NCBI GenBank assembly: GCA_965563795.1
Contig: CBEXJS010000002.1
Span: forward strand, 1-60,384
Length of the DNA stretch: 60,384 nucleotides
Direction: 5' to 3'
Origin: an uncultured Thermoplasmatales archaeon
GTDB taxonomy: Archaea > Thermoplasmatota > E2 > UBA202 > JdFR-43
Below, piece by piece: positions 15,705 to 55,944 of this stretch. Position 1 is the stretch's first letter. Every line of letters begins with the position of its first letter. Made by a program: the position numbers and the translations under genes. The notes under the pieces are model-generated. The model was not told the DNA's origin and did no database searches. It worked only from the letters and a program-made list of their open reading frames with translations.

Positions 15705-15713
15705 TAAAAATAT
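15705..15713 (-). promoter_or_regulatory. Candidate TATA box for the H/ACA sRNA
   Basis: The minus strand reads ATATTTTTA at about -31 to -23 from the first base of hairpin 1 (15682). It overlaps the stop codon of the upstream peptidase gene. Confidence 0.4.
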
Positions 15714-17446: not shown

Positions 17447-17579
17447 CGAAAAATAATGCAATCATAAAATAAAGTATTTTTGTTTTAAATGAAAAAGGAT
17501 ACTGCATTTGCTGATGATGCATTTCTTTATCATTGTTATTATTCTTTAAAAAATTGGGTACACCGAATAAATTCGATTA

Positions 17580-17696: not shown

Positions 17697-21246
<3,550 letters not shown>

Positions 21247-36379: not shown

Positions 36380-37665
36380 GGATATGCCCTCCTTAGTAAG
36401 CGTGGAAATGGAGTTGCATCTCTTATATGCTCCAATTTTGCAAGCCAGCAAATTAGTCTTTCCATTCCCAATCCAAAGCCTGAATGAGGAACTGAGCCAT
36501 AGCGACGCAAATCAAAATACCATTGATAATTTTCAATGTTAGCACCATCTTTTTTAAGCCTCTCTATCATTGATTCAATATCTTCTTCCCTTTCAGAGCC
36601 TCCTATTATTTCTCCATATCCTTCCGGAGCCAGCATATCTGCACATTCTACAGTCTTTTTATCTGGAGAAAGTTTCATGTAAAATGCTTTTGATTCTGCT
36701 GGAAAGTGGGTTACAAATATTGGCTTATCCTCTCCTTCTACCAACGCCTTTTCATGTGGCGCTCCAAAATCATCACCCCATTGTATATCAAAGCCTTTTT
36801 CCTGCAAAATTTTGATTGCATCCTTGTATTTTATTCTTTTGAAAGGTGGCTCAACAGCCATTAAGTCTTTTGGGTCTCTTCCAAGAAATTCTAACTGCTC
36901 CTTGCATTCTTTAGCAACTTTTTGGCATACATAGCTTATCATTTCTTCCTGCAATTTCATATTTTCTTCGTTTCTCACCCATGCTTCCTCTGCCTCCAAA
37001 TGCCAGTACTCTATTAAATGCCTTCTTGTTCTCGATTTCTCCGCTCTAAACGAAGGAGTTAAACTCCATACTCTTTCCAAGGAAAAAATCAAAGCTTCTA
37101 AATACATCTGGGCTGTCTGGCTTAAATACGCTTTTTGCCCAAAGTAATCAAAGGAGAAAACTGTTGCTCCTCCCTCGGCAGCATTCATTGTAATAACGCT
37201 TGGAGTAACCTCCCAAAATTCATTCTCATCAAACCATTCCCTTATAAATTTCAAAACCTTTGCCTTTAATTTCATTACTTCCGTTAGCTTCCTGGAACGA
37301 AGCCATAAATGACGGTTGTCAAGCAAAAATTCAACACTCTGATATTCTGTTATAGGAAATTCTTCAGCAAAGCTAATAACATTGAATTTTGTAGCATGAA
37401 TTTCTCTACCCCCAGGAGCTCTTTCATCTTCATGAATTATTCCTTCTACTTCAACAGATGATTCAATTAAAGCTTTTTTTGCATTTTTGAAATCCTCCTC
37501 AGCTACTTTTCCCTTTTCAACAATAACTTGGATTATACCTGTTGAATCTCTCACAACAACAAAAATTATTTTTCCCCCTTTCCTTTTCCTATAAATCCAT
37601 CCTCTTATCTTTGTTTTTTCTCCCTCTCCTTTTTTCAATGCATCTCTTATTTTTTCAAATTCCAT
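36376..37665 (-). CDS. asnS: Asparagine--tRNA ligase
   Basis: 429 aa, class IIb. Near-collinear by eye with archaeal AsnRS: SLTPSFRAEKSRTRRHL.E.WHLE, DMLAPEGYGEIIGGS.RE, YGSVPHSGFGLG.ERL and ending FPR....YP. Confidence 0.88.
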   Translation of the reverse strand: MEFEKIRDALKKGEGEKTKIRGWIYRKRKGGKIIFVVVRDSTGIIQVIVEKGKVAEEDFKNAKKALIESSVEVEGIIHEDERAPGGREIHATKFNVISFAEEFPITEYQSVEFLLDNRHLWLRSRKLTEVMKLKAKVLKFIREWFDENEFWEVTPSVITMNAAEGGATVFSFDYFGQKAYLSQTAQMYLEALIFSLERVWSLTPSFRAEKSRTRRHLIEYWHLEAEEAWVRNEENMKLQEEMISYVCQKVAKECKEQLEFLGRDPKDLMAVEPPFKRIKYKDAIKILQEKGFDIQWGDDFGAPHEKALVEGEDKPIFVTHFPAESKAFYMKLSPDKKTVECADMLAPEGYGEIIGGSEREEDIESMIERLKKDGANIENYQWYFDLRRYGSVPHSGFGLGMERLICWLAKLEHIRDATPFPRLLRRAYP

Positions 37666-37671
37666 CGTTTT

Positions 37672-40212
37672 TTAATGCAATCCTATCATAAAAATTTTGG
37701 TGTTCGGAAGAAATTTTCTTCCAAGTAGGTATATTCCTTTGGAATCAAATTCTATGAATTCAAAAATAAATGGCTTAACTTTTATTTCAGAGTTTGTGGG
37801 GAAGCGAAGCCAGGGCCATATTTTTACCCATCCAGGATAAACGAAAATAGCATCTCCTTTCCATGGTTTCTTAAACAAAAAACTCGGGCCAAACCAACTA
37901 CCCCAATAGTTATAGGTAGCATTATCATGACAATTCTCTCCCTTTATGCCGTATTTTGAATTTCCAAATATATTGTTGTAGTTTATCTCATTGTTTTTTG
38001 TATTTGTCATGTTTATTCCAATTTGATTCTCGCAAATACAATTGTATTTTATCTTATTGGAGGTGGATATTTTTATTAATATGCCATAATTGTTAGACAC
38101 GATCTCATTTTTGAAAATAGAATTGTTAAATGAATCATATATGAAAATAGCTATATCATTGTTAGAGAAATTATTTCGAGATATATTAGCAAAACAAGCC
38201 CATGACATTGAAATTCCTTTTGTATTTTTACAGAAAGTATTTTTTATTATTTCATCATACCATGTACTCTCCATTAATAGCGCTTCTGAATTATTATAGA
38301 AAATATTGTATCCTACATAGTTATTAGAAGCTCTATTAATTTCAATACCTTGAAAATTATGAGAAATATTGCAGTTTGATATATTATTTGCATCTGAATC
38401 TAATGTAAGAATACCGGTAATGTTGCTGTAAAGTATATTACTGTTAATAATTTTGCAATTTTTCCCATTGAGAAGTAGAATACTTATGTTGTTATTGTTT
38501 AAAATACATTCATCAATAATGCAAGAAGTTGAATTATGTAATTCTATTCCAATAACGCTCTTTGTTAATATACTATTTACAATATTGCAATTATTTGAAA
38601 AACCTATTTCTATGCCCACTGTAGCATTGCTTATATTTTGATTTTTTATAATGACATTTGAGCAATTTGCAAGAATAACTTGTCCTACTCCAGATGGAAC
38701 TATTCCTCCTTTAATATTCTTCCAGTAATATACTGGTTTACCATTTACTGTATTTGTAACATCTATTTCATGTGTATTCCAGTATTTTAATGAATCTCCT
38801 CCTAATACAATTCCATTGTTAATCATTGTGTTGTTTGTAAGTGTGCAATTTATAGCTTCTATGGCGATGCCGACGAGTCCGTATTTAATTACATTATTAG
38901 CAATATAGTAGTTATTGGAGGCAATGATACCAACTAAATTTTGGTTAAAAGTGTTATTGGTAATGATACTGTTAGCAGATTTCGGAGGGTAAATACCATA
39001 TACATTACCTTTTATAGTGTTATTATCTATTATATTATTTTTTGAATGATATAAATAAATGCCATAGGAGAAATAAAAGCTATATAAGTCAAAATAAAAA
39101 GAGGTTATTTGTTTTTTTATCTCATTATTGCTAATTCTGCAATTATCGGAATAACGAAGTTCAATACCTTTTGTATTATTATCCACTACATTATTTACAA
39201 TATTGCAATTATTTGAAAAACCTATTTCTATGCCCACTGTAGCATTGCTTATATTTTGATTTTTTATAATGACATTTGAGCAATTTGCAAGAATAACTTG
39301 TCCTACTCCAGATGGAACTATTCCTCCTTTAATATTCTTCCAGTAATATACTGGTTTACCATTTACTGTATTTGTAACATCTATTTCATGTGTATTCCAG
39401 TATTTTAATGAATCTCCTCCTAATACAATTCCATTGTTAATCATTGTGTTGTTTGTAAGTGTGCAATTTATAGATTTATATAACATAATCCCTTTTTTAT
39501 TGTTATAAAGATAATTTTGTGTAACAATGCAATTGCTGGAATGATAAAACCAAATACCTGCGTAATTGTTATTGAGAATATTATTAGATACTGAAATATT
39601 AGCAGAATTTATCAAATGAATGCCATCCAAGTTGTTTATTTCGTTGCCAATGATACTGCAATTATTAGCTTCATATAAAACAACAAAACCATAACTTATA
39701 TTATTGCCAACAAATGCAAAATCACTTGAATACCTTATCGAGACACCATTTTCATATAAAATTACATTTTCTACTTCCCCGTTTCTAACATTTAAGAAAA
39801 CCATACCATAATTATAATTTTCTATGCCTTTGTATATATAGCAATTTCTTATTACAAAATATGCTGTTGTATTTTCTATTCTAATTCCGTCTGTAATGCT
39901 TGCATTTATTTCCCATCCTTCTATAATATATGGATTCTCTTTTGTTCCGTTTCCTCCAACAACACCATTCTCTTCTGTAAAGTTTTCATTCCCATTTATA
40001 TAAATTGGTGGGCGAGGGGTGTAGATATCAGGGACTTTCAAATGAGGAGTTTTATTTTGTATCTTTTCCTGATTAAATTTTAAATAATTAAAAAAAGGAT
40101 ATATTGAAATGGGACTTTCATCATCTTTTATTAAAATGTTTTTCTCTTCGTTCCCTACAGAAAAATTTGCAAATAAAAGAATGAAAAGAATGGCTATTAC
40201 CATCCTTCTCAT
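37672..40212 (-). CDS. Secreted right-handed parallel beta-helix repeat protein (PbH1/NosD-like)
   Basis: 846 aa with a signal peptide and tens of roughly 22-aa N/I/G-rich beta-helix coils (NNxIxxNxxGIxL). The C-terminal block is YNYWGSWFGP. It contains a perfect internal duplication. Confidence 0.75.
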   Translation of the reverse strand: MRRMVIAILFILLFANFSVGNEEKNILIKDDESPISIYPFFNYLKFNQEKIQNKTPHLKVPDIYTPRPPIYINGNENFTEENGVVGGNGTKENPYIIEGWEINASITDGIRIENTTAYFVIRNCYIYKGIENYNYGMVFLNVRNGEVENVILYENGVSIRYSSDFAFVGNNISYGFVVLYEANNCSIIGNEINNLDGIHLINSANISVSNNILNNNYAGIWFYHSSNCIVTQNYLYNNKKGIMLYKSINCTLTNNTMINNGIVLGGDSLKYWNTHEIDVTNTVNGKPVYYWKNIKGGIVPSGVGQVILANCSNVIIKNQNISNATVGIEIGFSNNCNIVNNVVDNNTKGIELRYSDNCRISNNEIKKQITSFYFDLYSFYFSYGIYLYHSKNNIIDNNTIKGNVYGIYPPKSANSIITNNTFNQNLVGIIASNNYYIANNVIKYGLVGIAIEAINCTLTNNTMINNGIVLGGDSLKYWNTHEIDVTNTVNGKPVYYWKNIKGGIVPSGVGQVILANCSNVIIKNQNISNATVGIEIGFSNNCNIVNSILTKSVIGIELHNSTSCIIDECILNNNNISILLLNGKNCKIINSNILYSNITGILTLDSDANNISNCNISHNFQGIEINRASNNYVGYNIFYNNSEALLMESTWYDEIIKNTFCKNTKGISMSWACFANISRNNFSNNDIAIFIYDSFNNSIFKNEIVSNNYGILIKISTSNKIKYNCICENQIGINMTNTKNNEINYNNIFGNSKYGIKGENCHDNATYNYWGSWFGPSFLFKKPWKGDAIFVYPGWVKIWPWLRFPTNSEIKVKPFIFEFIEFDSKGIYLLGRKFLPNTKIFMIGLH
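38574..38855. repeat. Copy 1 of a 282-bp perfect direct repeat inside the beta-helix gene
   Basis: Base-for-base identical by eye to 39192-39473. The offset is 618 bp (206 codons), which is in frame. Confidence 0.9.
39192..39473. repeat. Copy 2 of the 282-bp perfect direct repeat
   Basis: Identical to 38574-38855. It encodes ...CTLTNNTMINNGIVLGGDSLKYWNTHEIDVTNTVNGKPVYYWKNIKGGIVPSGVGQVILANCSNVIIKNQNISNATVGIEIGFSNNCNIVN. Confidence 0.9.
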
Positions 40213-40250: not shown

Positions 40251-43200
40251 TTATCCTATCTCTTTCACTTCTTCATAAATTTGTTTTAAAATTTCCATAT
40301 AATCTGCTTTTCCATTTTCTACCATGTCCATTTCTTCTTCAATTTTCCTTGTTCTTTCCTCGCTAACGAAGCTTCCGTAGTTTTGGCTCAAAAATTCATA
40401 AACTTCTTTTCCCCTTTTTGTCGGAATTATTTTTCCGTTTTTCTCTATTACATAATCTCTTATGAAAAGTTTTTCGACAATGGTAGCATAGGTAGAGGGG
40501 CGCCCAATGCCTTTTACACGCATGTCATGAATAACCTCTGACTGAGTATATAAAGGCATTTTCGGCAGATACTTTATTATAGCTTTTTTCCTGAATTTGC
40601 CTATCGGCAATTCATTTTTCACCCATACCGCCTTATATAAATCATATGCCCTTCCTTTTGCTTCAACAACTCTTTCTTCCTCAATTTCTTTTCCATCATA
40701 TTTTATTCTATATTTCTTTATCTTGACAATATATTCCTTGCATTGACTCGCCATAAATCTGCGGAAAATCAAATCATATAAAGCTAAATGTTGCCAGTCT
40801 ATATCCTCAACTTGCAAAACTTTTTCATGGATTAGGCGTTGAAGTAAATTCTTATCCCATGGGCGAGTTGGTCTAATGCATTCATGCGCTCCTTCCTTGA
40901 AGAATGTTCTACCCTTGAAATCATCGCCTAAAAACTCTTTTGCCACTCTCAGTCCAGCGTCGCTAACACGGGTTGAATCTGTTCTGTGATAAGTTATTAA
41001 ACCGCTTTCAAACAAAGTTTGGGCTATTTTCATTGCTTTATTTGCAGGAAGTTTTAGAATGGCATTTGCATCTTTCAGCATTTCATCAGTTGTATATGGT
41101 GGCAGTGGTTGCTTTTCCTCCTCTCTTTCTTCCAATAATTCAATCTCCAGCTTTATCTCTTCGCCTGCATTTTCAAGCATTAAGCCAAAGTCCTCAATTA
41201 TAGCTACTTTTTTCTTTTGCCTGTATTGCTTCTCCCTTTCAATTATCCATCCTAGCACGGGCGTTTGTGCTCTCCCTGCTGATAAATTTCTATTATTAAA
41301 AACATCCCATAATTTCTGGCTTAAACAAAATCCAATCCACCTGTCTTCTATCCTCCTCACAATTTGAGCCTTAACTAAATTTTCATCTATGTTTCGCAAA
41401 TTCTCAAAAGCATGTCTTATTGCTTTTGGAGTAATCTCATGAAATTCAGCTCTCCTTATTTTTCCACATCCTGCCAATAAATTTGCAATGTCCCAAGCAA
41501 TTTTTTCCCCTTCAGCATCTGGGTCTGTGCCTATAATTATTTCCTCCACTTCATAAGCAAGTTTTCTTAATGAGGAAATTCTATTCTTTGAATCATCTAT
41601 ATTCTCGCTTTTACATCTTATGCATATCTGGCTCTCTTCGGTAAATTGATAGCCACAATCCTTGCATCTTTTTATTGAAGCATATATAGGAACAAAGGTT
41701 CCATTTAGCTCTATACCATGAAATCCTCTATTTGTTATTAAATCTGTAAGATGCCCCAGGCTTGCTGTAATGAGCAATACATATTTTTCTGTAGCTACTT
41801 CATAAGCAATTGAATTTCCAATTACTTTAATGCTGGGCTTACCAAAGAAACGAGAAATTTGCTTGGCTTTTGTTGGACTCTCTACAATGAATAATGCCGG
41901 TTTAATCAAATCCTTCTTTTCTTCCTTCCTTTCCTTTCTGCTTTCCTCTACTTCCTTTTTTAACTTCTCAAAGTCTATCTCCTCCAATCTTTTAAACTCA
42001 ATATCATAATAGCTTGCTCTTTCTATAAATGCTCTTAAAATTTCGCCATCATCTTCAAAAAGAAATGATGCTCCTTTTGTTATTCCTCCTGCCAGCAAAC
42101 GAGATGTTCTGCCAGATCCTTGTATATAAGTTCTTACATCAGGAAATATGATTTCTCCTTTTCGAAGGACAAAATCTCTTTCTTCTTTTATTCCTTCTTC
42201 CATTATTCTTTTTATTGCTAATTTTAATTCCTCAAATTCCTTCCTTTTTTCGATAGTTGGCAAAATAGGAATAAATTTCTTTATCTCTTCCCTATTCCTA
42301 AATAAGTTGGCTATAACTTTTATTGCATTTGGGCTAAGCTCATCAATTTCTTCAATTCTTATTCTATTGACGGGGGCGCCAATAAAAACAGCATACTTTA
42401 TCTCTTTCGGCAAGTCTATGCCCCTAATTAAAGCTCCATAGTAATATGCGGTGCCTATAAGAAAATCAAGTTCTCCTTCCTTAAATTTCTCAAATGCTTC
42501 TTTACTTTTTGATGTTACTAATCCAATCTTAAATTCATCTTTTAGCTTTTCATACCATTTCTCACATTCTTCTATACTCCTCGCATATATTATTACTCCT
42601 TTTTTCAGCTTATTCAAAAGTTTTTTTATTTCTGCTTCATTTTCCCCTTCAATATAAACATCTTCAATATTTCTTATGGTAAAATAGGAAGAGCCTATAT
42701 CAAAGTTTAAAAGTTGCCTGAATAGTTCTGCTTTCTTTCCTTTTTTAGCCGTTGCTGTTGAAACCATTAAAATTCCCTTTGCTTTACCTTTCCATTTGCC
42801 ATCATAATAAAAGCCCAGCAAGCTTAAGATTCTATCAATGTTGCGAGAAGCTTTTAAAATAGCATCAACATCATCAACAAAGATGAAGTCAAATGTTATT
42901 CCTTTTAAATCGTCGAAATGCTTTGCTAAAAATTGCGTAGTAGTCAACAAAATTTTGAATTCCTTATTTTTAAGTTTTTCAAAAAATTCTTCTTTTTCTT
43001 TCATCCCTCCATAGTAGTAAAGCACTTTTTCTTTCAGCTTAAGCTTTTCAGAAATTTTATTTATTGTTTCTAAAGATTGCTGAACTAGGAGAGTTGTTGG
43101 AAAAATAAGATAGCTTTTTTTGCCTTTCTTTGCAAAGAATAATGCCATTGTAATGCCAAATGAACTCTTGCCAATTCCTGTTGGAGCTACGGCGGCGAAA

Positions 43201-43418
43201 CTTTCTCCTCTTAATATCCTTTTTGCCCAAAATTTCTGCAATGCTCTTGGCTTTCCTATAGCTTTTTCAAAGAAGCTAAAAAATTCATTGATTATTTCTT
43301 CTTCTTTTGCATAACAAAGTGGCTTGTTTTTTTCCTCGCATTTATTTAAAGCTATTTCCTCAGTAGCTAAATCTTTTTTGCATATGGGGCATAGATTTGC
43401 ATATTTTGCTTCAATCAT
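40251..43418 (-). CDS. rgy: Reverse gyrase
   Basis: 1055 aa. It has an N-terminal zinc finger CPICKK...C and helicase motifs APTGIGKS and VDDVD. A Toprim/topoisomerase IA half follows (LFIVESPTKAKQI, TDPDAEGE, ITYHRTDS). Confidence 0.92.
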   Translation of the reverse strand: MIEAKYANLCPICKKDLATEEIALNKCEEKNKPLCYAKEEEIINEFFSFFEKAIGKPRALQKFWAKRILRGESFAAVAPTGIGKSSFGITMALFFAKKGKKSYLIFPTTLLVQQSLETINKISEKLKLKEKVLYYYGGMKEKEEFFEKLKNKEFKILLTTTQFLAKHFDDLKGITFDFIFVDDVDAILKASRNIDRILSLLGFYYDGKWKGKAKGILMVSTATAKKGKKAELFRQLLNFDIGSSYFTIRNIEDVYIEGENEAEIKKLLNKLKKGVIIYARSIEECEKWYEKLKDEFKIGLVTSKSKEAFEKFKEGELDFLIGTAYYYGALIRGIDLPKEIKYAVFIGAPVNRIRIEEIDELSPNAIKVIANLFRNREEIKKFIPILPTIEKRKEFEELKLAIKRIMEEGIKEERDFVLRKGEIIFPDVRTYIQGSGRTSRLLAGGITKGASFLFEDDGEILRAFIERASYYDIEFKRLEEIDFEKLKKEVEESRKERKEEKKDLIKPALFIVESPTKAKQISRFFGKPSIKVIGNSIAYEVATEKYVLLITASLGHLTDLITNRGFHGIELNGTFVPIYASIKRCKDCGYQFTEESQICIRCKSENIDDSKNRISSLRKLAYEVEEIIIGTDPDAEGEKIAWDIANLLAGCGKIRRAEFHEITPKAIRHAFENLRNIDENLVKAQIVRRIEDRWIGFCLSQKLWDVFNNRNLSAGRAQTPVLGWIIEREKQYRQKKKVAIIEDFGLMLENAGEEIKLEIELLEEREEEKQPLPPYTTDEMLKDANAILKLPANKAMKIAQTLFESGLITYHRTDSTRVSDAGLRVAKEFLGDDFKGRTFFKEGAHECIRPTRPWDKNLLQRLIHEKVLQVEDIDWQHLALYDLIFRRFMASQCKEYIVKIKKYRIKYDGKEIEEERVVEAKGRAYDLYKAVWVKNELPIGKFRKKAIIKYLPKMPLYTQSEVIHDMRVKGIGRPSTYATIVEKLFIRDYVIEKNGKIIPTKRGKEVYEFLSQNYGSFVSEERTRKIEEEMDMVENGKADYMEILKQIYEEVKEIG

Positions 43419-45034: not shown

Positions 45035-47506
45035 TTATGGATATCCTCCTATTTTTAGGCTTGGATCCCCTAGCAAAACCCACTGTTGCACCGTCTTTTC
45101 ATCTATCCAGTCCCATCCCAAATCTGGATACCACCAGCACTCTGGCAGAGTAAATTCCTTGAAATGCTGTATATAGCTATTTATTGTTTGCACGTAATTT
45201 ATGCCAAGCATGTTATATCCATGCTCACCGTATTGTCTAAAGAATTCAGATGTAATCCATCCATCTCCAGCACCAACAGTACACCATTCTCCTTCCCATC
45301 CCCATCCATAGCCAGTGTTGCCCATTGATGCTATTGCTCCAGTGTTAGGTAATCTAACGAGGCACCATGACAGGCACTCTGGAACAAGCTGTCCGTATGT
45401 ATGCATCCATATGTTTTTTCCCATAAACAGGAGGAACAAATGCAATACAGATGGAACAGCTGAAACGTTAAACTGGCTATTATGACATCCTCCGATAACT
45501 GTAATTGGCCACTTTCCTTCATTTGAAATTTCTTTTAGGGGGAACAATGGAAAGCTAATGTATGGGAAGTAACCTTTTACTTGAGATACAACAAGCCCAG
45601 CAAGCTGAGCATATCTTCTATTTCCTGGTATTCCTGGCAAGTGATCCCCCCAGAATCCAGGGCTTCCATGACCGGAGAGAAAAGCAAATCCATGTCCCTT
45701 GCTATATGCATCTATTACATCATCCATACCAGTATACCTTCCATTTGAGGTCCATAGTATATCTCTTTCAAAGTCATCTGGCATGTAATACAATGCTCCT
45801 CCTCTTCCATGCAACTCTTTCTCACCAGTTACCCATTCTCCTTCATAATACATTTCTGTATTGTTGCGCCATGCTTCAAAAACAACTTCGCCATCCTCAT
45901 TTTCTACCCATACATGAATGCTTGTTACATTTCCATATGGCTTTGGATCATATGATTTGCCCCTTATTGTAAGGATACCATTTTCATAACTTATATCTGC
46001 CCAGTGGAATAATTCATTACAATATGCTTCCCATTCTGATGGAGTATAGGTATAGTCTGTATTGCCTAAAATATCTCCATCTGATACGCTAACAATCTCT
46101 GCAATTGGAGGAGCAGGATATCCATTTTGCAAAGCTGGATTTAAATGATCATCATGATTGAAAGTAAGTTTTGTTTCCTTGCTTCTATCTATAGTAATGT
46201 GAATTTCATCAATTGGGCCTGCTTCGCCTTCATCATTTATGCTTTGGGCATAAATGACATATTTTCCATCTGGCAATCCTTTTGTATCCCATGTAATGTT
46301 CAAGTCTTGCTGATCAAGAAATCCATCTCCAGATACAACCAAAATCCTTTTGAACCACTGGCTACCATAAGCATTTTTCTCATATTCAATGATTTTATTT
46401 ACCACATCTTCAACTTCCTTAAGATTTCTGCATGCAAGCCTTCCAACAGCAACATCTGGATATAAGTCTAAAACATCATCCGGTTCTTTTTCGATATCAA
46501 GCCATTCTGCAAATATACCATTGCCATTGCTGTCCCAGTCATCAAATTCTCCCCCTTCTTTATATATGTCTGCATAATATAAATCGCAAAGATAACCTGG
46601 CTCTTCAGCTATAAGGTTTGAATATCTTACTGGCAAATGCCATCCAGTTACGCCAGCATTTTTATTATCTTTTGGCTTTGCATATATTAATGATTTTAAT
46701 CCACCTACAAGTAATACATATTTTATTCCATATTGTTCAATTGCATTTTTAATGAAATATTTTATTTTCTCTGGCTCATCTCTGCCATTGTATTTGCTGT
46801 AAATTTCTTCAGTAGTCATTAAAAATGTTTTTACTCCATAGTTATTTTTATGCTCAACAAGCTTTTGCAATGCATCAGAAAATTCTGAAGGAGCTATAAT
46901 CACCATATCATATACATCTCTCTGTATCCATGGTTTCTTTGGAGGTAAATAACTTATTTTTATTTCTGCATTCTTAGCCACAACCACCTTATTTTCTGCT
47001 GGCAAATATCTTACTGGATAAATGTTTACTGTAACAAAAGTAACATGCTCCATTTTCTCATTTAGCCCACAACCTACTCTATAACTATACCAGCCAGATG
47101 GATAAAGCTTATTGCTGGAATAAACCTCTTCATCTTTTCCTAGAGGATGGTATCCTTTTATTGGCGTTAATGGCATAGGAGCAGGAGCTGGCATTATCTG
47201 CTTTTCTATGATTTTTTCCTCTACTTCTTTTACCTCCACCTCCACTTTTACGTTCCTTACACCAAATGGAAGCTCAAAAATTTTTAGTACTCTTGGAAGC
47301 ATTGGTTTGCCAGGAGCCATAATGTATAATTCCTCTCCATTTTCATTGGGCATTTTTATCCTTATATAGTTTTCTTTTTGCGTGAATTTCGGCTCAAAGA
47401 ATTGCACTTTTATTTTCTTGGTATATTCTTCAGCATTGCTAAATGTTATTCCTCCAAAAATTAGTATGGTAACTATTGCAATAGCTACTACTCTTTTCAT
47501 TTTCAC
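45035..47506 (-). CDS. Secreted peptidase C25 (gingipain-like), paralog 3
   Basis: 823 aa with a signal peptide. Blocks are YDMVIIAPS and EPEKIKYFIKNAIEQYGIKYVLLVGG. Dyad contexts are AFLSGHGSPG and ITVIGGCHNSQF. The C-terminus is LLGDPSLKIGGYP. It carries a roughly 200-aa insertion between the halves relative to paralog 1. Confidence 0.8.
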   Translation of the reverse strand: MKMKRVVAIAIVTILIFGGITFSNAEEYTKKIKVQFFEPKFTQKENYIRIKMPNENGEELYIMAPGKPMLPRVLKIFELPFGVRNVKVEVEVKEVEEKIIEKQIMPAPAPMPLTPIKGYHPLGKDEEVYSSNKLYPSGWYSYRVGCGLNEKMEHVTFVTVNIYPVRYLPAENKVVVAKNAEIKISYLPPKKPWIQRDVYDMVIIAPSEFSDALQKLVEHKNNYGVKTFLMTTEEIYSKYNGRDEPEKIKYFIKNAIEQYGIKYVLLVGGLKSLIYAKPKDNKNAGVTGWHLPVRYSNLIAEEPGYLCDLYYADIYKEGGEFDDWDSNGNGIFAEWLDIEKEPDDVLDLYPDVAVGRLACRNLKEVEDVVNKIIEYEKNAYGSQWFKRILVVSGDGFLDQQDLNITWDTKGLPDGKYVIYAQSINDEGEAGPIDEIHITIDRSKETKLTFNHDDHLNPALQNGYPAPPIAEIVSVSDGDILGNTDYTYTPSEWEAYCNELFHWADISYENGILTIRGKSYDPKPYGNVTSIHVWVENEDGEVVFEAWRNNTEMYYEGEWVTGEKELHGRGGALYYMPDDFERDILWTSNGRYTGMDDVIDAYSKGHGFAFLSGHGSPGFWGDHLPGIPGNRRYAQLAGLVVSQVKGYFPYISFPLFPLKEISNEGKWPITVIGGCHNSQFNVSAVPSVLHLFLLFMGKNIWMHTYGQLVPECLSWCLVRLPNTGAIASMGNTGYGWGWEGEWCTVGAGDGWITSEFFRQYGEHGYNMLGINYVQTINSYIQHFKEFTLPECWWYPDLGWDWIDEKTVQQWVLLGDPSLKIGGYP

Positions 47507-48042: not shown

Positions 48043-49257
48043 ATGGAAAAAATTGTTGCTATGATAATTATGCTTCTTTTCCTTTTCCCCTTTATAAGTA
48101 GTGAAAATACAGTCCATGTTGCTAACACAAATAATGTTTTATATGTTGGAGGCACCGGTCCAAACAACTACACAAAAATACAGGATGCAATAAATGATGC
48201 AAAAGATGGCTACATCATTTATGTTTACCCTGGCTATTATAATGAAAGCATTGTAATAAACAAAAGTATATCATTGATTGGCATAGGGGAAGAAAAGCCA
48301 GTTATAAATGGAAAAGGAAATGAATATACTGTATTGATAGAAGCAGATAATTGTACTGTTAAGCAATTTGTAATAAAAAATGGAAAGATAGGCGTTAAAT
48401 TAACAGATGTATACCACATTAAAATAGAAAATAACACTATCAGGTATGCATCTATAGGGATTTTATTATTAAATTCTTCACAATCTTTAATCAGAAACAA
48501 CACACTAAATGAAAATGGCATGGGAATCAATCTGCAAGGGTTTTCAAATAATAATGCAATAATTGGAAATATAATTTATAATAACAAGGGAACTGGAATA
48601 GGTATATATGGGATATTTTCTGAAAAAACGCACGGCATAACTATTTCATACAATAATATTACAAAAAATTTTGATGGCATCGAAATATTTGTTTCATCTG
48701 ATGGCATGATTTCCTTCAATCATGTTTACAAAAATAAACAATACGGAATATCAATTGATATTTGTGAAAACATGTCCATTTTAAATAATTCTATTCATGA
48801 CCATACATATGGAGGATTGCAACTGATGGATTGTTCATATAGCATTGTTGAGGGAAATGAAATATATGAAAATTCTGCAGGAATAATGGTGCAATCAAGC
48901 TATACATGGGGAGAACATTTCAATCTTATAAAGAGAAATGATGTATATTCAAATGCTGACTATGGAATATATGTGGAACGTTCTTTGTATAATGTCTTTA
49001 CTCAAAATAATCTTATAAATAATGGGAGGAATGCATGGTTCTGGTATCATGTTATTATTGGCAATCCTTCATTGCCAATAAGACCCTGTCACAATAGATG
49101 GTTCAATAATTACTGGGATGACTGGAAAAGTACTTTGCCAAAGCCGGTGGTAGGTTTACTGGATGTTGATGTTGACCTTTTTGATAGATACATATGCATC
49201 TGGAGTGGTTCATGGCTCAACTTTGACTGGCATCCTGCTTTAGAACCATGGAAGTAA
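48043..49257 (+). CDS. Secreted right-handed beta-helix repeat protein (PbH1/NosD-like), short paralog
   Basis: 404 aa with a signal peptide and beta-helix coils (IRNNTLNENGMGINL, IIGNIIYNNKGTGIGI). The C-terminal block is NNYWDDW...W. Confidence 0.7.
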   Translation: MEKIVAMIIMLLFLFPFISSENTVHVANTNNVLYVGGTGPNNYTKIQDAINDAKDGYIIYVYPGYYNESIVINKSISLIGIGEEKPVINGKGNEYTVLIEADNCTVKQFVIKNGKIGVKLTDVYHIKIENNTIRYASIGILLLNSSQSLIRNNTLNENGMGINLQGFSNNNAIIGNIIYNNKGTGIGIYGIFSEKTHGITISYNNITKNFDGIEIFVSSDGMISFNHVYKNKQYGISIDICENMSILNNSIHDHTYGGLQLMDCSYSIVEGNEIYENSAGIMVQSSYTWGEHFNLIKRNDVYSNADYGIYVERSLYNVFTQNNLINNGRNAWFWYHVIIGNPSLPIRPCHNRWFNNYWDDWKSTLPKPVVGLLDVDVDLFDRYICIWSGSWLNFDWHPALEPWK

Positions 49258-51103: not shown

Positions 51104-51164
51104 TGAAAAAATGTTTTATTGCTATCTTCCTCATGCTAATATCCTAATAATCCTTCTTTCATTT
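51102..51164 (-). repeat. Unit of the dispersed repeat family directly upstream of the ubiquitin-like cassette
   Basis: AATGAAAAAATGTTTTATTGCTATCTTCCTCATGCTAATATCCTAATAATCCTTCTTTCATT is bracketed by AATGAAA/TTTCATT. Its left end overlaps the transketolase stop codon. Confidence 0.6.
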
Positions 51165-51226
51165 TGGGAATCATAGTTTCACAATAAAATTTTTTAATGC
51201 ACAATTAATTTTCTCATGGTGGCAAA

Positions 51227-51460
51227 ATGAAAATTACTGTTAAAGATGCTGAAACAGGCAATAAAGTAAATATGGAAGTTGAAGATGATAATACCATTGA
51301 AGAAATAATTGAAGAAGTGGCAAATTACTGGAAAAAGAATCCAGGAGCATATGTAATAAGATATGGAAAGAAAATTTTGCAAGCTGAGCTAACTGTTGAG
51401 GAAGCAAATTTGCATGAAGGAGATGTCATTGAATTAATTCCTGATCCAGAAGGAGGTTAA
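51227..51460 (+). CDS. Ubiquitin-like beta-grasp protein ending in Gly-Gly-stop
   Basis: 77 aa: [27 protein letters not shown]...[35 protein letters not shown]. It aligns by eye with eukaryotic ubiquitin ([26 protein letters not shown]...LIFAGKQL...LRGG). GGTGG lies 4 nt upstream of the ATG. The stop TAA abuts the ATG of the E2 gene. Confidence 0.8.
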   Translation: [77 protein letters not shown]

Positions 51461-51979
51461 ATGCCTCTTCCAAGAGATTTGTTATTAAAAAGAATAAAAA
51501 ACGAGATTAGGGAATGTAAAAGAAAGCTTAAACACCATTTTGTTGTTTCGGATCCAGAATTTAAAAAATTGCCATTAGAAATAACTGTTACATTGGTAAA
51601 TACCCCTGGACCAATATGGAGTGATGGAAGAGTAATTCATAAATTTACACATAAATTAAAGATAATTATTACTGAGGATTATCCATATCAAACACCTATA
51701 GTAAGATGGAAAAGCCCAATTTTTCATCCAAACATAATGCCTCCTGAAGATGGTGGCTATGTTTGCACAAAACTTTTAGAGGGATGGAGCTTTAAATCAA
51801 ATCTTTTAGCTTTTATTAAAGGGCTAGAAGTTTTACTTGCTAATCCAAATCCGCAGAATCCTTTTGAAACAGATGCATGTACAAGAGCTGCAGAATATTT
51901 TAATAAGCATCCCTACAATCCGCCAGAAATAAAGGAAAAGAAACCCAAAATTTTGAGAGAAAATGGTGAAGATAAGTAA
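51461..51979 (+). CDS. Ubiquitin-conjugating enzyme (UBC/E2)-like protein
   Basis: 172 aa with UBC core signature YPYQTPIVRWKSPIFHPNIMPPEDGGYVCTKLLEGW...LLANPNPQNPFE. HPN is at codons 89-91 (51725-51733) and the candidate catalytic Cys102 at 51764-51766. A GGAGG Shine-Dalgarno is formed by the Gly-Gly codons of the upstream gene. Confidence 0.82.
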   Translation: MPLPRDLLLKRIKNEIRECKRKLKHHFVVSDPEFKKLPLEITVTLVNTPGPIWSDGRVIHKFTHKLKIIITEDYPYQTPIVRWKSPIFHPNIMPPEDGGYVCTKLLEGWSFKSNLLAFIKGLEVLLANPNPQNPFETDACTRAAEYFNKHPYNPPEIKEKKPKILRENGEDK

Positions 51980-52490
51980 CGAAGAAAAGAAGGAGCCAAA
52001 GCTTCAGCCCCCTCCCCAGCAAATTTTATATAGGCATGGCAAGGAGAAAGAATTTGAATTGTACATAAAGGAAAATGCATTTCAAAGTTTGCTAGAGCAT
52101 TGCAATAAAATGGCAGAAGAGAATAAGGAAGCAATGGGATTTTTGGTAGGAGATGTAAAATATTGGAATAAAGAATATGCTGTTGTATATGATATTGCCA
52201 CTGCATCCTTAGATGCTTCTCCATATCATGTTAAATTCAGAAAAGATGCTTTTGAAGAATTATTTAATAAATTAGATGAAATAAGCTTTGATTATATACT
52301 AGTAGGATGGTATCATTCTCATCCTGGCTACTCAAGCTTTATGTCCGAAATTGATGTTGAAACTCAGAGAAAATACTTCAATAAAAGCTTTCATGTCGCC
52401 TTAGTTGTTGATCCAATTAAAAAAGAAATAAAAGCATTTAAGCTTAAAAATTCAGAATGCGTTGAAATAGGATATGCAATAGTTAAATAA
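51963..52490 (+). CDS. JAMM/MPN+ metalloisopeptidase (Rpn11/JAB-like)
   Basis: 175 aa with catalytic Glu context EAMGFLVG and a complete HxHx7Sx2D motif, HSHPGYSSFMSEID. It overlaps the E2 gene by 17 nt. Confidence 0.85.
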   Translation: MVKISNEEKKEPKLQPPPQQILYRHGKEKEFELYIKENAFQSLLEHCNKMAEENKEAMGFLVGDVKYWNKEYAVVYDIATASLDASPYHVKFRKDAFEELFNKLDEISFDYILVGWYHSHPGYSSFMSEIDVETQRKYFNKSFHVALVVDPIKKEIKAFKLKNSECVEIGYAIVK

Positions 52491-54302: not shown

Positions 54303-55136
54303 TTATTCTATTGCATTTATAACATCAATTAAGGTTTGACTGCTTGTATACCCTGTTTTAACATATTTCCATCTTCCATGGCTATCAAATATAGCAAGTG
54401 TTGGAATCCCTCCTTCAAGCACATATTTTGATGCAACTTTGTATTCATCCATGCCGAAAATCCATTTATTGACGTATTCTCCAAAAGTATTTTTTATTTT
54501 ATTGGCATCATCTCCTTCATATATGTCGAGAGAAATTATGTAAATGTTATTGCCAAAATGTTCCTTAACTTTACTAAGCTCTTTCATTTGCATATGACAT
54601 GGCTGGCACCATGTTGCCATAAAATCAACAATTACTGGCTTTCCTCTATAATCACTTAAATGTTTTACTGTTCCATCTAACAATACAAATGGAAAATCAT
54701 CTCCCATTTTTCCTTTTAATGCATCATCCATTTTTTGGAGAAACTCATTTAATGTTGTTATTCCAACGACTCTAAACAATTCTGTTCCATTTAAAAGAAA
54801 GATTACAGTAGGCAAATATGGAATATATTGTATGCCATATTTATAAGCTAATTGTCCTCCATCAGAAGAATCAACATCTACTTTTATGAGCAAAAAATCT
54901 TTTGCTTTTTCTATAAAATCATTAGAAGAAAAAACATTTTCTTCTAGCTTTTCACATGCAGAACATTGCTCTTTCGAATAAAAATATAGAATTGCATAAC
55001 TTCCATTTAACTTCTCTTTAACCTCCTCATAATTTTTCCATTCTTCTTGGCTTGAGGAAACTTTTACTTCCTTTTCTTCAATGCATCCAGTTAGTGGCAA
55101 AATAAGAATTAAGATTAAAGCTAAACTTTTCTTCAT
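54303..55136 (-). CDS. Lipoprotein with two thioredoxin-fold domains (TlpA/ResA-like thiol-disulfide oxidoreductase)
   Basis: Lipobox-like LPLTGC. The first domain carries CSAC and the second ATWCQPC. ATG 55136 forms an ATGA overlap with the trx stop. The track start 55154 extends into trx. Confidence 0.7.
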   Translation of the reverse strand: MKKSLALILILILPLTGCIEEKEVKVSSSQEEWKNYEEVKEKLNGSYAILYFYSKEQCSACEKLEENVFSSNDFIEKAKDFLLIKVDVDSSDGGQLAYKYGIQYIPYLPTVIFLLNGTELFRVVGITTLNEFLQKMDDALKGKMGDDFPFVLLDGTVKHLSDYRGKPVIVDFMATWCQPCHMQMKELSKVKEHFGNNIYIISLDIYEGDDANKIKNTFGEYVNKWIFGMDEYKVASKYVLEGGIPTLAIFDSHGRWKYVKTGYTSSQTLIDVINAIE

Positions 55137-55528
55137 ATATATCTCTCCACCCAATCCCTTAGCATATCCTCAGGCAAAGCTCCAACAAGCCTATCCACCA
55201 TCTTCCCTTCTTTAAACAGAATAAGCGTTGGAATACTCATTACTCTATATCTCATTGCCATTTTCGGATTTTCATCTACATTTAATTTTGCAAAAACTAC
55301 CTTTCCTTTCATTTCCTTAGCCAGCTTTTCTATAACAGGCGCTATAAGGCGGCAGGGACCACACCATGGCGCCCAGAAATCAACCACTACCACATCATAT
55401 TTAGAAATGATTTCATCAAAATTTTCATCTGTTGCTTTTAAAGGCTTGGATGGCATTTCTTCTTTCTTTTGCATATTCATTAGCATTTTTCTTAACATTT
55501 TTTGCTTCAATTTTTCCACTTCATCCAT
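55133..55528 (-). CDS. trxA: Thioredoxin
   Basis: Active site FWAPWCGPC. ATG 55528 (MDEVEKL) is preceded by TTTATATA-like boxes. The track start 55579 is over-extended. Confidence 0.85.
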   Translation of the reverse strand: MDEVEKLKQKMLRKMLMNMQKKEEMPSKPLKATDENFDEIISKYDVVVVDFWAPWCGPCRLIAPVIEKLAKEMKGKVVFAKLNVDENPKMAMRYRVMSIPTLILFKEGKMVDRLVGALPEDMLRDWVERYI

Positions 55529-55608
55529 GCTGGTTATATATTTAGTTATATAAAACGTTTTTGCATAATTTTTGCACAACCGTTTTATATAGCTTTTTAT
55601 TTACATTT

Positions 55609-55944
55609 GTGGATTGTGAAAATGTATTCAAATGCTTATTCAATGCAGGGAAAAGAGAAATAGAGATTTATAAGCTTCTCCTGAGAGGAAGTAAAAGAGT
55701 AGATGAAATTTGTCAAATTGTTGGGAAAGATAGGAGCACTGTGCAACGTATATTGAATAAGTTAGTAAAATGTAAAATTGTGAGGAGAGAAAAAAGAATA
55801 ATAAAAAATGGAGGAGGATACTATTTTGTATATAAAGCGGTATCTCCAGATAAATTAAGGAGATGGTTGGAGAAATGTATTGAAGACTGGCAAAAGGAAA
55901 TGAAAGAAGCAATAAAAAATATTGAGGAATTTATGTTATCTTAA
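55609..55944 (+). CDS. Winged-helix transcriptional regulator (TrmB/ArsR-like)
   Basis: REIEIYKLLLRGSKRVDEICQIVGKDRSTVQRILNKLVKCKIV is a wHTH. The track start 55561 is TTG abutting the trx promoter. GTG 55609 is a plausible start, but the start remains uncertain. Confidence 0.6.
   Translation: MDCENVFKCLFNAGKREIEIYKLLLRGSKRVDEICQIVGKDRSTVQRILNKLVKCKIVRREKRIIKNGGGYYFVYKAVSPDKLRRWLEKCIEDWQKEMKEAIKNIEEFMLS

Follow-up and report, generated by a model that had tools for sequence, protein, structure and literature searches.

A likely ubiquitin-family modifier encoded with an E2 and an Rpn11-like protease in a Thermoplasmata archaeon

The small protein encoded at positions 51227..51460 (+) of an archaeal contig ends in Gly-Gly and lies beside a gene for an E2-like enzyme. 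This raises the question of whether it is a relative of ubiquitin itself or of sulfur carriers such as ThiS and MoaD, which likewise adopt the beta-grasp fold and end in a Gly-Gly that a ThiF-family adenylyltransferase activates. The window (the whole stretch of 60,384 nt that was analysed) contains 305 ORFs of at least 40 aa, among which we found no paralogue of this protein, from here on called the tag, and no second ORF ending in Gly-Gly. The translation of 77 aa ends in PDPEGG, i.e. in a mature Gly76-Gly77, directly followed by a TAA stop codon. A first-pass annotation of the same DNA had given the lengths of the tag and ubiquitin as 77 and 76 aa and had held that no C-terminal processing is needed; ORF translation confirms the former, and the latter is right for this gene. 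The tag gene is followed on the same strand by genes for an E2 (51461..51979), with its ATG (51461) immediately 3' of the tag stop codon, and for an Rpn11-like JAMM protease (51963..52490); transketolase and LysRS genes are the other neighbours. ORF and translation, Pfam, AlphaFold2, Foldseek and hhalign all enter into the assignment of the tag to the ubiquitin family. We consider it likely, with good confidence, that the 77-aa tag genuinely belongs to the ubiquitin-family modifiers, has the beta-grasp fold and is synthesised already mature, with its Gly-Gly end free, and that its gene is the first of a three-gene tag-E2-JAMM operon in a thermophilic Thermoplasmata archaeon. This explanation is based on the sequence, the predicted fold, membership of a family and the gene order, together with the conservation of these across the phylum.

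Ubiquitin and sulfur-carrier models compared

The tag matches the Pfam ubiquitin model (PF00240) with 33.9 bits (E = 2.6e-8), passing the gathering cut-off of 25.4, whereas its match to ThiS (PF02597) has 17.7 bits and falls under the cut-off of 22.5. The archaeal MoaD model of NCBIfam (moaD_arch) gives 17.4 bits against a cut-off of 49.5, and no NCBIfam model reaches its cut-off for the tag, the E2, the JAMM protein or the E1 discussed below. Of 31 family members scanned with Pfam, all match ubiquitin, and 17 also match ThiS, more weakly. In hhalign comparisons of the family profile, the probability is 92.7% for ubiquitin (E = 4e-7) and 71.6% for NEDD8, and at most 10% for the ThiS/MoaD families (1.4% for E. 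coli MoaD, 1.1% for E. coli ThiS, and 9.8%, 0.3% and 2.1% for SAMP1, SAMP2 and Urm1, these last three values being approximate). Smith-Waterman z-scores of the tag are 2.4 against E. coli ThiS and 2.8 against E. coli MoaD.

Structure prediction gives the same picture. The AlphaFold2 model (pLDDT 93.6) has the secondary-structure elements in ubiquitin order, with DSSP strands at residues 2-7, 13-17, 42-46, 49-51 and 67-72, a helix at 24-34 and a turn at 47-48. The best PDB match of the model in Foldseek is Caldiarchaeum ubiquitin (6fnn_C, TM 0.90, 27% identity); TM scores against ubiquitin, NEDD8 and Caldiarchaeum ubiquitin are 0.82-0.90 (rmsd 1.0-2.7 Å), and the best 50 matches consist of these three and SUMO. 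At the sequence level, the family profile finds only ubiquitin in the PDB, the single sequence finds ubiquitin plus other UBL proteins, and an exhaustive search of 1.84 billion (1.84e9) representatives has eukaryotic polyubiquitins as the next-best matches after the tag's own family. Neither the PDB sequence searches nor the exhaustive search had ThiS, MoaD or SAMP among the matches. A point on the other side is that the tag's match to mono-ubiquitin in a database-wide single-sequence search is weak (13.5 bits, E = 0.84). The first-pass annotation had proposed from a by-eye alignment that the tag resembles ubiquitin rather than ThiS/MoaD/SAMP, and every formal test (Pfam, hhalign, Foldseek and sequence searches) agrees; the classification of the tag as ubiquitin-type, not ThiS/MoaD/SAMP-type, holds.

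Two alternatives can be weighed at this point. The first takes the tag for a beta-grasp protein of the sulfur-carrier or SAMP type (ThiS/MoaD/SAMP/Urm1-like) that mainly serves thiocarboxylate chemistry via a MoeB/UbaA-type E1, with any conjugation being independent of an E2. It can draw on the Gly-Gly end, the sub-threshold ThiS and MoaD matches, a cognate E1 that is a single-domain ThiF-family protein with ThiF, MoeB and UbaA as its nearest NCBIfam models, and a weak match of the JAMM protein to the haloarchaeal desampylase (36.5 bits, cut-off 130). We nevertheless regard it as very unlikely, since ubiquitin models come out ahead in all comparisons, the tag's operon always includes a UBC-fold E2 whose HPN...Cys active site is intact while sulfur-carrier systems have none, and the E1 is closer by PDB score to Uba1, UBA7 and SAE2 than to MoeB/ThiF. 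Nor are the partners of sulfur insertion (ThiG/ThiF, MoaE, NcsA) found adjoining the tag, either in the window neighbourhood or at the loci of relatives, and no thiazole or molybdopterin synthase genes are among the tag's neighbours.

The second alternative, that a eukaryotic ubiquitin gene was captured by recent horizontal transfer or contamination and has no native archaeal cascade, is suggested by the polyubiquitins being nearest outside the family and by the E2, JAMM and E1 proteins each scoring best against eukaryotic PDB entries. It is extremely improbable in view of an identity to ubiquitin of merely 26%, and of the 60-kb contig being archaeal, with reverse gyrase, class I LysRS and a split transketolase and a uniform GC of about 0.34. 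Moreover, the family has its own invariant signature across 76 distinct sequences (W35, R45 and PDPEGG), and the operon layout, overlapping genes and minimal E1 are prokaryotic features.

Alignment register and the Ile44 surface

The optimal global alignment of the tag with human ubiquitin has 20 identities in 77 positions (26%), in line with the "roughly a quarter" of the first-pass annotation, and scores 67, compared with 12.9 ± 5.9 for 2000 shuffles (z = 9.2), none of which reaches 67. The BLOSUM62 global alignment, HMMER, hhalign and Foldseek concur in placing a single one-residue gap in the turn between strands 1 and 2; Foldseek has 77 columns for the 76-aa ubiquitin, and the identity counts fit only this single-gap register. 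The pairs of interest are then Ile44 of ubiquitin with Arg45 of the tag, Gly47 with Lys48, and Lys48 with Lys49. The register is weakest at about residues 30-50, with column confidences of 3-4 (of a possible 9) in hhalign. The five codons R45-Y46-G47-K48-K49 (51359..51373, +) make up the hairpin between strands 3 and 4, as placed by the single-gap register, the DSSP landmarks and family conservation, with G47-K48 as the turn and the counterpart of Ala46-Gly47 in ubiquitin. Among the 76 distinct family members R45, G47 and K48 are invariant, as is the tail PDPxGG with both G76 and G77, and Lys49 is a lysine in 63.

The first-pass annotation had instead matched Ile44, Gly47 and Lys48 to equivalent positions of the tag. 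The residue aligned with Ile44 is the invariant Arg45, Gly47 is paired with the invariant Lys48, and a lysine does align with Lys48, although it is Lys49, one position further on. Similarly, of the three matching stretches it described, the first and the C-terminal one agree with the optimal alignment and the middle one is shifted by one residue; identities do cluster in strands 1-2 and the start of helix 1 (12 of 20 within residues 1-25), while the equivalence of the Ile44 patch does not stand. The earlier register takes two more gaps and scores 55 against 65-67, conflicts with the DSSP landmarks and the 77-column Foldseek alignments, and would have the invariant Arg45 on its strand facing the protein core. 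We reject it with considerable, though not complete, confidence.

Mapping of the hydrophobic patch follows from this. Leu8, Ile44, His68 and Val70 of ubiquitin correspond to Glu9, Arg45, Glu69 and Ile71 of the tag, so that only Ile71 for Val70 is retained. The Leu8-Ile44-Val70 patch was thus not found on the tag, in a register of moderate confidence. Because Ile44 is paired with the invariant Arg45, and Leu8 and His68 with Glu9 and Glu69, the canonical hydrophobic patch appears from the aligned residues to be absent, i.e. the Ile44 patch of ubiquitin is not conserved in the tag. Arg42 of ubiquitin is replaced by Val43, and as Val43 and Arg45 are both invariant, the tag's partners probably read a charge-swapped surface (Arg45 for Ile44, Val43 for Arg42). 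The Leu8-Ile44-Val70 patch is a feature of ubiquitin proper, and not of every family member. Since Lys49 occupies the Lys48 position, chain formation through this residue is possible.

Overall, the tag shares with ubiquitin and NEDD8 the fold and element order, 26-27% identity, a near-equal length (77 versus 76 aa; a single indel, in the turn between strands 1 and 2), the free C-terminal Gly-Gly, Lys6, a lysine at the Lys48 position, and partner enzymes of the same types, a UBC-fold E2 with HPN...Cys and a JAMM protease of Rpn11 type. It differs in its tail (PDPEGG versus LRLRGG in ubiquitin), in lacking Lys11, 27, 29, 33 and 63, and, compared with ubiquitin, in being encoded as a single mature unit with no polyubiquitin or ribosomal-protein fusion. 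The eukaryotic system also differs in its enzymes, as the E1 of the tag has about 257 aa without a Cys or ubiquitin-fold domain, and there is no linked RING or HECT E3.

Partner enzymes and distribution of the operon

The 172-aa product of 51461..51979 (+) is identified as a UBC-fold E2 conjugating enzyme by Pfam (UQ_con, 57.1 bits) and by its best PDB matches, all of them eukaryotic (Rad6/UBC1, UBE2T, UBC9 and UBE2N). Its HPN motif is at residues 89-91, and the predicted catalytic Cys102 (codon 51764-51766) aligns with the catalytic Cys of 2aak; His89, Pro90, Asn91 and Cys102 are invariant in 33 homologues. The 175-aa Rpn11-like JAMM/MPN+ metalloprotease (51963..52490, +; Pfam JAB, 51.4 bits), the gene of which overlaps that of the E2 by 17 nt, carries Glu56 and the motif HSHPGYSSFMSEID at residues 118-131 (52314-52355), and has as its best PDB matches yeast Rpn11 (E = 1e-12), the Caldiarchaeum Rpn11-like protein 6fjv (E = 4.5e-12), CSN5 and AMSH-LP.

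In a collection with one genome per species we found 385 related stretches, the best 80 of which are all labelled Thermoplasmata, Thermoplasmatota, Methanomassiliicoccales, Methanobacteriota or Euryarchaeota, apart from one labelled only "archaeon". In 82 loci the adjacency tag-E2-JAB is invariant, and in 60 of them a ThiF gene precedes these three. The family is thus widespread in Thermoplasmatota, usually as a ThiF(E1)-Ub-E2-JAMM operon without a RING E3. The tag ends exactly at Gly-Gly in 61 of the 82 loci, and some relatives carry 1-8 residues after it. All of the public copies of the tag that we checked are annotated "hypothetical protein". Full-text literature searches found no description of the tag or operon; the only mention in the literature found is made in passing, in a single sentence that refers to a deep "Ca. 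Thermoplasmatota E2" clade.

Within the 60-kb window no E1 was found by tblastn with two in-operon ThiF proteins of relatives, and no ThiF is present among the 46 ORF translations of at least 110 aa, which were read by eye; an E1 gene in the window is ruled out on both counts. For the window's clade, orthologous stand-alone ThiF genes (69-72% identical) are present on other contigs of the same MAGs as the operons, and the E1 of this clade is encoded away from the operon. As seen in the window by itself, the cascade is incomplete, which counts against a complete system. The in-operon ThiF of relatives has 119 bits to the active adenylation domain of Uba1 and about 70 to MoeB/ThiF, and UBA7 and SAE2 also rank above MoeB/ThiF in the PDB. 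These proteins are 229-266 aa long and align only with the Uba1 adenylation domain (residues 422-578), with a zinc motif at the end; in 62 sequences the GxGxxG motif is accompanied by a CxxC...C zinc site, and Cys186 is invariant. Neither an E1 Cys domain nor a C-terminal ubiquitin-fold domain was found in the cognate ThiF; these are the parts that eukaryotic E1s use for E2 recruitment, and their lack counts against the cascade proposed below.

As for an E3, the 4211 ORFs lying up to 4 kb to either side in the 82 loci were clustered all against all, and the outcome was the tag, ThiF, E2, JAMM and housekeeping neighbours only. No conserved operon-linked E3 was among them, a point against the proposed cascade, and no RING-like domain appeared in the Pfam scans of the window. 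A conserved operon-linked RING E3 is therefore rejected; this search covers ±4 kb around 82 loci, and an unlinked E3 remains compatible with it.

The gene content also bears on a third alternative, that the operon is an archaeal counterpart of Bil-type (BilABCD) or CBASS-type anti-virus defence, putting the tag on viral proteins, as opposed to housekeeping regulation. BilABCD comprises a Ubl, an E2, a JAB protease and an E1, without an E3, so the ISG15-like Bil operons and related bacterial Ubl-E1-E2-JAB operons have the same four components, no dedicated E3 and a compact E1. Further, the JAMM protein weakly matches the JAB (38.7 bits) and BilC (26.7 bits) models of PADLOC, and the E1 weakly matches the E1 part of the CBASS E1-E2 models. 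However, the Ubl and E2 models of PADLOC match neither the tag nor the E2, the latter belongs to the eukaryote-type Pfam family UQ_con and not to the prokaryotic-E2 family, and the tag passes the Pfam ubiquitin cut-off. The operon lies in conserved housekeeping neighbourhoods across many species (LysRS, TrpRS/TyrRS-type synthetase, ribosomal protein, SIS and AP-endonuclease genes) and not in variable defence islands, and its presence in hundreds of species of one phylum looks like vertical inheritance. We consider a defence role very improbable. Membership of a known defence system was rejected with PADLOC (PADLOC-DB of 2023), as the BilC score of the JAMM protein is below that of the generic JAB models and the E1 hits are generic CBASS E1-E2 ones.

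A possible cascade and related systems

Taking the tag as a ubiquitin-family modifier, a cascade of four steps can be proposed by homology and analogy. The first step would fall to a compact ThiF-type E1 (about 257 aa), the gene of which is directly upstream of the tag in most relatives and probably lies at another place in this genome; it would adenylate Gly77 and probably form a thioester on the invariant Cys of its crossover loop. The tag would then be handed to Cys102 of the adjacent UBC-fold E2. This enzyme would join the tag, with no RING E3 from the operon, to lysine residues on target proteins or on the tag. Finally, the Rpn11-like JAMM protease would remove the tag, and in relatives with 1-8 residues after Gly-Gly it may also mature the precursor, as in Caldiarchaeum. 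Biochemical precedent is provided by the ubiquitin, E1, E2 and Rpn11 of Caldiarchaeum, where Rpn11-type maturation of the precursor was shown (PMC5654768). We tentatively suggest, as a plausible reading that falls a little short of being probable, that Thermoplasmatota carry a vertically inherited, phylum-wide, E3-less ubiquitin cascade, in which a eukaryote-type tag, UBC E2 and Rpn11-like deubiquitinase work with a minimal homodimer-type E1, and the tag is read via a charge-swapped surface (Val43/Arg45 for Arg42/Ile44). An observation that counts against the proposed cascade is that the tag is without the canonical Ile44 patch, on which the closed E2~Ub state depends in eukaryotes and Caldiarchaeum.

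The closest known systems are the operons of Caldiarchaeum subterraneum (Aigarchaeota) and Asgard archaea (Nunoura 2011, PMC3082918; Hennell James 2017, PMC5654768; PDB 6FNN/6FJV), in which a ubiquitin-family tag, a UBC-type E2 and an Rpn11-like JAMM protease are encoded together, as in the 82 loci here. Caldiarchaeum ubiquitin has 9 aa after Gly-Gly, comparable with the short pro-peptide of some Thermoplasmatota relatives, and likewise has no Ile at the 44 position, where it carries Thr46 (both PMC5654768). Unlike in these archaea, there is no small RING-finger E3 in or near the Thermoplasmatota operon, and the host phylum is neither TACK nor Asgard. The model of the Caldiarchaeum E1 comprises inactive and active adenylation, Cys and C-terminal Ubl domains, whereas that of Thermoplasmatota is single-domain, and the Caldiarchaeum JAMM gene is adjacent and divergently transcribed (PMC5654768), whereas here it is within the operon. 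The operon may correspond to "Cluster III" of Hennell James (E1 without Ubl domain; PMC5654768). SAMP/UbaA/HvJAMM1 of Haloferax and Urm1/ELSA of Sulfolobus resemble the present system in combining an archaeal beta-grasp modifier with a GG end, a single-domain ThiF-family E1 and removal by JAMM. They have no E2, which here is always adjacent, and use modifiers of the ThiS/MoaD or Urm1 families.

Among archaea, Caldiarchaeum alone has a characterised eukaryote-like ubiquitin system, and discussion of such systems has centred mainly on Asgard archaea, while the tag belongs to a large, unstudied family, in a host outside the groups usually linked to eukaryote origins. If the proposed cascade is correct, the module of ubiquitin, E2 and Rpn11 either dates back further than an Asgard-centred view implies or has passed between archaea more widely than that view allows for, and E2 charging and conjugation can proceed without an E1 ubiquitin-fold domain and without a RING. 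As a minimal four-protein system without an E3, it could serve as a model for the charging of a UBC-fold E2 by an E1 of ThiF size, could show whether the Ile44 patch is dispensable, and bears on the age of the ubiquitin/E2/Rpn11 trio in archaeal evolution. The family includes thermophiles, the proteins of which suit biochemistry and structural work. For annotation, we propose the names ubiquitin-like modifier, E2 and JAMM deubiquitinase for these genes.

A minor point concerns the junction between the tag and E2 genes. The Shine-Dalgarno-like 7-mer AGGAGGT (51451..51457, +), made up of the end of the Glu75 codon and both Gly codons, ends 3 nt upstream of the E2 ATG, with its GGAGG core (in GGA GGT, 51452-51457) 4 nt upstream, and could act as a ribosome-binding site, as the first-pass annotation held. 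GGAGG is indeed there, and only one Shine-Dalgarno match in the window is longer than AGGAGGT, but codon usage alone explains the motif and its dual use is unproven. GGA makes up 57% of Gly codons, and 70 of 102 Gly-Gly pairs in the window (69%) are already encoded with GGAGG, so that the motif is no evidence of selection. Shine-Dalgarno matches of at least 5 nt are confined to 6 of 58 genes, with spacings of 7-8 nt in most of the six and 12 nt in the sixth, compared with which the 4 nt of the E2 gene is short and atypical. GGAGG is only partly conserved in the family, relatives having GGGGGT or GGCGGA for the same Gly-Gly pair.

The ubiquitin-family tag and its operon

The tag is encoded at 51227..51460 on the forward strand, and re-translation bears out the coordinates, the length (77 aa, against 76 aa for ubiquitin) and the Gly-Gly followed directly by a stop (TAA) reported in the first-pass annotation. 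Of the 305 ORFs in the window that reach 40 aa, no other ends in Gly-Gly, and the window carries no paralogue of the tag. Aligned globally and optimally (BLOSUM62), tag and human ubiquitin are identical in 20 of 77 columns (26%, score 67), with a sole gap of one residue in the strand 1-2 turn. Shuffled tags score 12.9 +/- 5.9 (n = 2000, z = 9.2, none reaching 67), i.e. the similarity exceeds chance. The identities are concentrated N-terminally as first described, 12 of the 20 lying within residues 1-25. A database-wide search with the single tag sequence matches mono-ubiquitin weakly (13.5 bits, E = 0.84); besides ubiquitin and its variants, the matches listed comprise further ubiquitin-like proteins, for example ubiquilin, Rad23 and NEDD8/RUB1, and a small number of weak matches to unrelated proteins.

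The Pfam ubiquitin model (PF00240) scores 33.9 bits on the tag (cut-off 25.4, E = 2.6e-8) and Rad60-SLD 24.4 bits, whereas ThiS (PF02597), the model for ThiS, MoaD and proteins of SAMP1 type, reaches 17.7 bits, under its cut-off of 22.5. When aligned tag relatives are scanned singly, ubiquitin matches 31 of 31, and ThiS only 17 of 31, more weakly. Against the PDB, the family profile retrieves ubiquitin chains only, at full length (1-77 versus 1-76). In hhalign, the 76-sequence family profile gives 92.7% for ubiquitin (E = 4e-7) and 71.6% for NEDD8, versus 1.4% for MoaD and 1.1% for ThiS (both E. coli, NC_000913), 9.8% for SAMP1, 0.3% for SAMP2 and 2.1% for Urm1. An AlphaFold2 model from the family alignment (pLDDT 93.6) has strands 2-7 and 13-17, a helix 24-34, a short helical turn 39-41 and strands 42-46, 49-51 and 67-72, a predicted order that matches ubiquitin. 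Its best Foldseek match in the PDB is Caldiarchaeum subterraneum ubiquitin (6fnn_C, TM 0.90, 27% identity), followed by ubiquitin, NEDD8 and SUMO (TM 0.82-0.88, rmsd 1.0-2.7 A), with no ThiS, MoaD, SAMP or Urm1 entry among the top 50. The central proposal of the first-pass annotation, that the tag is nearer to ubiquitin than to ThiS, MoaD or SAMP, is upheld by Pfam, hhalign, Foldseek and an exhaustive HMM search, and in the profile comparison set beforehand as its refutation test ThiS and MoaD scored lower. We give very little probability to the reading of the tag as a sulfur carrier only. The exhaustive search, with the tag family against 1.84 billion representatives, retrieved 239 proteins, ranking the tag's own family first and multi-repeat proteins second; the two of the latter that were inspected (P0305 and P0324) are eukaryotic polyubiquitins. 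That the tag is itself a captured eukaryotic gene is extremely unlikely; GC is about 0.34 along the entire contig.

The second gene (ATG at 51461, ending at 51979, forward strand, 172 aa) starts directly after the tag stop and encodes a UBC-family E2 (Pfam UQ_con, 57.1 bits) with best PDB matches to Rad6, UBE2T, UBC9 and UBE2N. Its HPN motif (residues 89-91) and Cys102, whose counterpart in plant UBC1/Rad6 is the catalytic Cys, are kept in 33 of 33 homologues. The third (51963..52490, forward strand, 175 aa) overlaps the E2 ORF by 17 nt and encodes an MPN+/JAMM protease (Pfam JAB, 51.4 bits) in which Glu56 is present and residues 118-131 form the motif HSHPGYSSFMSEID. In the PDB this protease is closest to yeast Rpn11, the Caldiarchaeum Rpn11-like protein, CSN5 and AMSH-LP. 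One conserved operon carries the mature form of a ubiquitin-family tag together with an E2 and a JAMM protease, both intact.

The Gly-Gly codons GGA GGT (51452-51457) include GGAGG, 4 nt ahead of the E2 ATG, and among the Shine-Dalgarno matches of the window AGGAGGT (51451-51457) ranks second in length; matches of at least 5 nt precede only 6 of the 58 genes. The aligned spacing in these six is 4 nt for E2, 7-8 nt for four others and 12 nt for one. The earlier suggestion that these codons double as the E2 ribosome-binding site is plausible, as is stop-start coupling of tag and E2 translation, but there is no sign of selection, given that 70 of the 102 Gly-Gly dipeptides in window genes are encoded GGAGG (GGA makes up 57% of Gly codons). 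Close relatives have GGAGGT, GGGGGT, GGAGGA or GGAGGG and then TAA-ATG; distant, GC-richer ones have GGCGGA-TAG-N5-ATG. The AT-rich spacer upstream of the tag (51104..51226, 123 nt) holds, by eye, a TATA-like run, ATAAAATTTTTTAA, at about 51186-51199 and GGTGG (51218-51222) 4 nt ahead of the tag ATG, elements that may serve the operon as promoter and weak Shine-Dalgarno site.

Register of the Ile44 and Lys48 positions

HMMER, the global alignment and hhalign agree on a constant offset beyond the first gap, ubiquitin residue n-1 standing opposite tag residue n. Foldseek alignments to 76-residue ubiquitins have 77 columns, and their identities (wild-type ubiquitin 26%, 20/77; S65D mutant 27%; NEDD8 27%, 21/77) are exactly those predicted by this single-gap register. 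The model landmarks, i.e. turn 39-41, strand 42-46, two-residue hairpin 47-48 and strand 49-51, also agree with the offset, their counterparts in ubiquitin 1UBQ being 38-40, 40-45, 46-47 and 48-49. The single-gap register is probably correct, with hhalign column confidence at residues about 30-50 of only 3-4 out of 9. The equal-position register that the first-pass annotation gave for the middle stretch takes two additional gaps, scores 55 rather than 67 and would turn an invariant Arg toward the core, and is unlikely.

From the uniform offset, ubiquitin R42, L43, I44, F45, A46, G47 and K48 pair with tag V43, I44, R45, Y46, G47, K48 and K49, and L8, H68 and V70 with E9, E69 and I71; K6 pairs with K6. 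The claimed Ile44 equivalence is therefore probably wrong, R45 occupying that position, and the Gly47 match is displaced to ubiquitin A46. A lysine does stand at the Lys48 position, as K49, one residue from the K48 originally named. V43, R45, G47 and K48 are invariant in all 76 distinct family sequences, position 44 varies only among L, I and V, and K49 is Lys in 63 of 76. On this register the hydrophobic patch around Ile44 is not conserved, a predicted, conserved Val43/Arg45/Glu69/Ile71 surface taking its place. Caldiarchaeum ubiquitin likewise lacks Ile at that position, having Thr46 (PMC5654768).

Distribution, E1 and proposed cascade

Among 90%-identity clusters the E2 has 271 relatives at E <= 1e-3. 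A collection with one genome per species yields 385 confirmed stretches for it, and the 80 best all carry a Thermoplasmata, Thermoplasmatota, Methanomassiliicoccales, Methanobacteriota or Euryarchaeota label, except one labelled just "archaeon". The nearest public tag copies are from Thermoplasmata MAGs, several with isolate labels (Guay for Guaymas, AUK, HyVt) that we read as hydrothermal. The tag, E2 and JAB genes are adjacent in 78 of 82 non-redundant loci, i.e. everywhere the contig permits seeing it, and apart from these and the ThiF-family gene described next no conserved gene, RING-like or other, was found within +/-4 kb of the operon in the 82 loci.

A ThiF-family gene (229-266 aa, mostly 5-125 nt away) lies upstream of the tag in 60 of the 82 loci. 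Its product best matches the yeast Uba1 active adenylation domain (119 bits), then UBA7, SAE2, UBA6 and UBA3, with MoeB/ThiF at about 70 bits, and carries GxGxxG, a zinc site of the form CxxC...C and, within an RFSCTG loop, a Cys that is invariant; this E1 has neither a Cys domain nor a ubiquitin-fold domain. No ThiF gene was found in the window, or beside the tag in those of its nearest relatives whose sequence extends far upstream. Orthologues with 69-72% identity to a ThiF from within an operon stand alone in MAGs that also carry an operon, on a different contig (CAZDCH01, contigs 8 versus 34; JAGGYX01, 1 versus 143). Downstream of one of these, in a window-clade MAG (L087:6001-11354), come first AlaRS and next three genes for TrmB, thioredoxin and a Trx-like protein; the same trio lies in the window at 54303..55944, just past the tag, E2, JAB and LysRS genes. 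This shared trio suggests that a local rearrangement parted the E1 from the operon.

We propose that an unlinked ThiF-type E1 would activate tag Gly77, that the tag would move to E2 Cys102 by transthioesterification and be conjugated to lysines, E3-independently or via an unlinked E3, and that the JAMM protease would reverse conjugation. By analogy with Rpn11, which matures Caldiarchaeum pro-ubiquitin (PMC5654768), it may also mature the precursor where the tag carries 1-8 residues beyond the GG, which is so in 21 of 82 relatives. In some relatives (L001:10229-10258, L016-L018 and L020) the GG stop is lost and the tag is extended by 8 residues across the E2 start codon, with tails such as KCPYQRRY and xCFQKICL, several with one or two cysteines; such tails would be a predicted pro-peptide requiring JAMM processing. 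Other architectures of tag relatives, among P0303, P0345, P0302, P0310, P0325, P0339 and P0312, include natural tag-E2 fusions, with ...PDPTGG running directly into the E2 domain, a membrane protein with two tags in tandem, a tag-like N-terminal domain that lacks GG and is joined to a C-terminal domain of ~110 aa, and a tag relative inside a 1684-aa protein.

Archaeal eukaryote-like ubiquitin cascades are a kind of system already known. Compared with the Caldiarchaeum/Asgard type, this one has a minimal E1, no RING, the JAMM gene inside the operon and a host of another phylum; unlike SAMP/Urm1 systems, it has an E2 and a tag of the true ubiquitin family. An anti-virus system of Bil type has identical gene content, but bacterial Bil operons differ in protein families and genomic context; neither tag nor E2 has a PADLOC match, and the surroundings are housekeeping (a split transketolase upstream; class I LysRS, thioredoxins and a TrmB regulator downstream), so that we consider an anti-virus role improbable. 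A deep-branching "Ca. Thermoplasmatota E2" clade is mentioned in one sentence of a preprint (bioRxiv 10.1101/2023.07.25.550441), beyond which no mention of the tag or operon was found in the searchable literature; "Cluster III" of Hennell James et al. (PMC5654768) has E1s without a Ubl domain. The tag is annotated "hypothetical protein" in every public copy checked, and no NCBIfam model names the tag, E2, JAMM or E1.

Other genes of the window

No Pfam match at E <= 1e-4 was found for a 582-aa protein (15713..17461, reverse strand) or a 198-aa Glu-rich CxxC...CxxC protein (120..716, forward strand). A bacterial-style end-joining pair spans 10774..12461 on the reverse strand of this archaeal contig, with Ku (11697..12461; PF02735, 148 bits) directly upstream of an adjoining ATP-dependent DNA ligase (10774..11700). 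Three paralogous secreted, gingipain-type C25 peptidases with C25 propeptides (45035..47506, 17697..19562 and 34154..36451, reverse strand) and large NosD/beta-helix proteins (37672..40212, reverse; 48043..49257, forward) suggest, from their predicted domains, an extracellular protein-degrading lifestyle. A 1055-aa reverse gyrase with helicase, Toprim and topoisomerase IA domains (40251..43418, reverse strand) indicates that the host is a thermophile or hyperthermophile.
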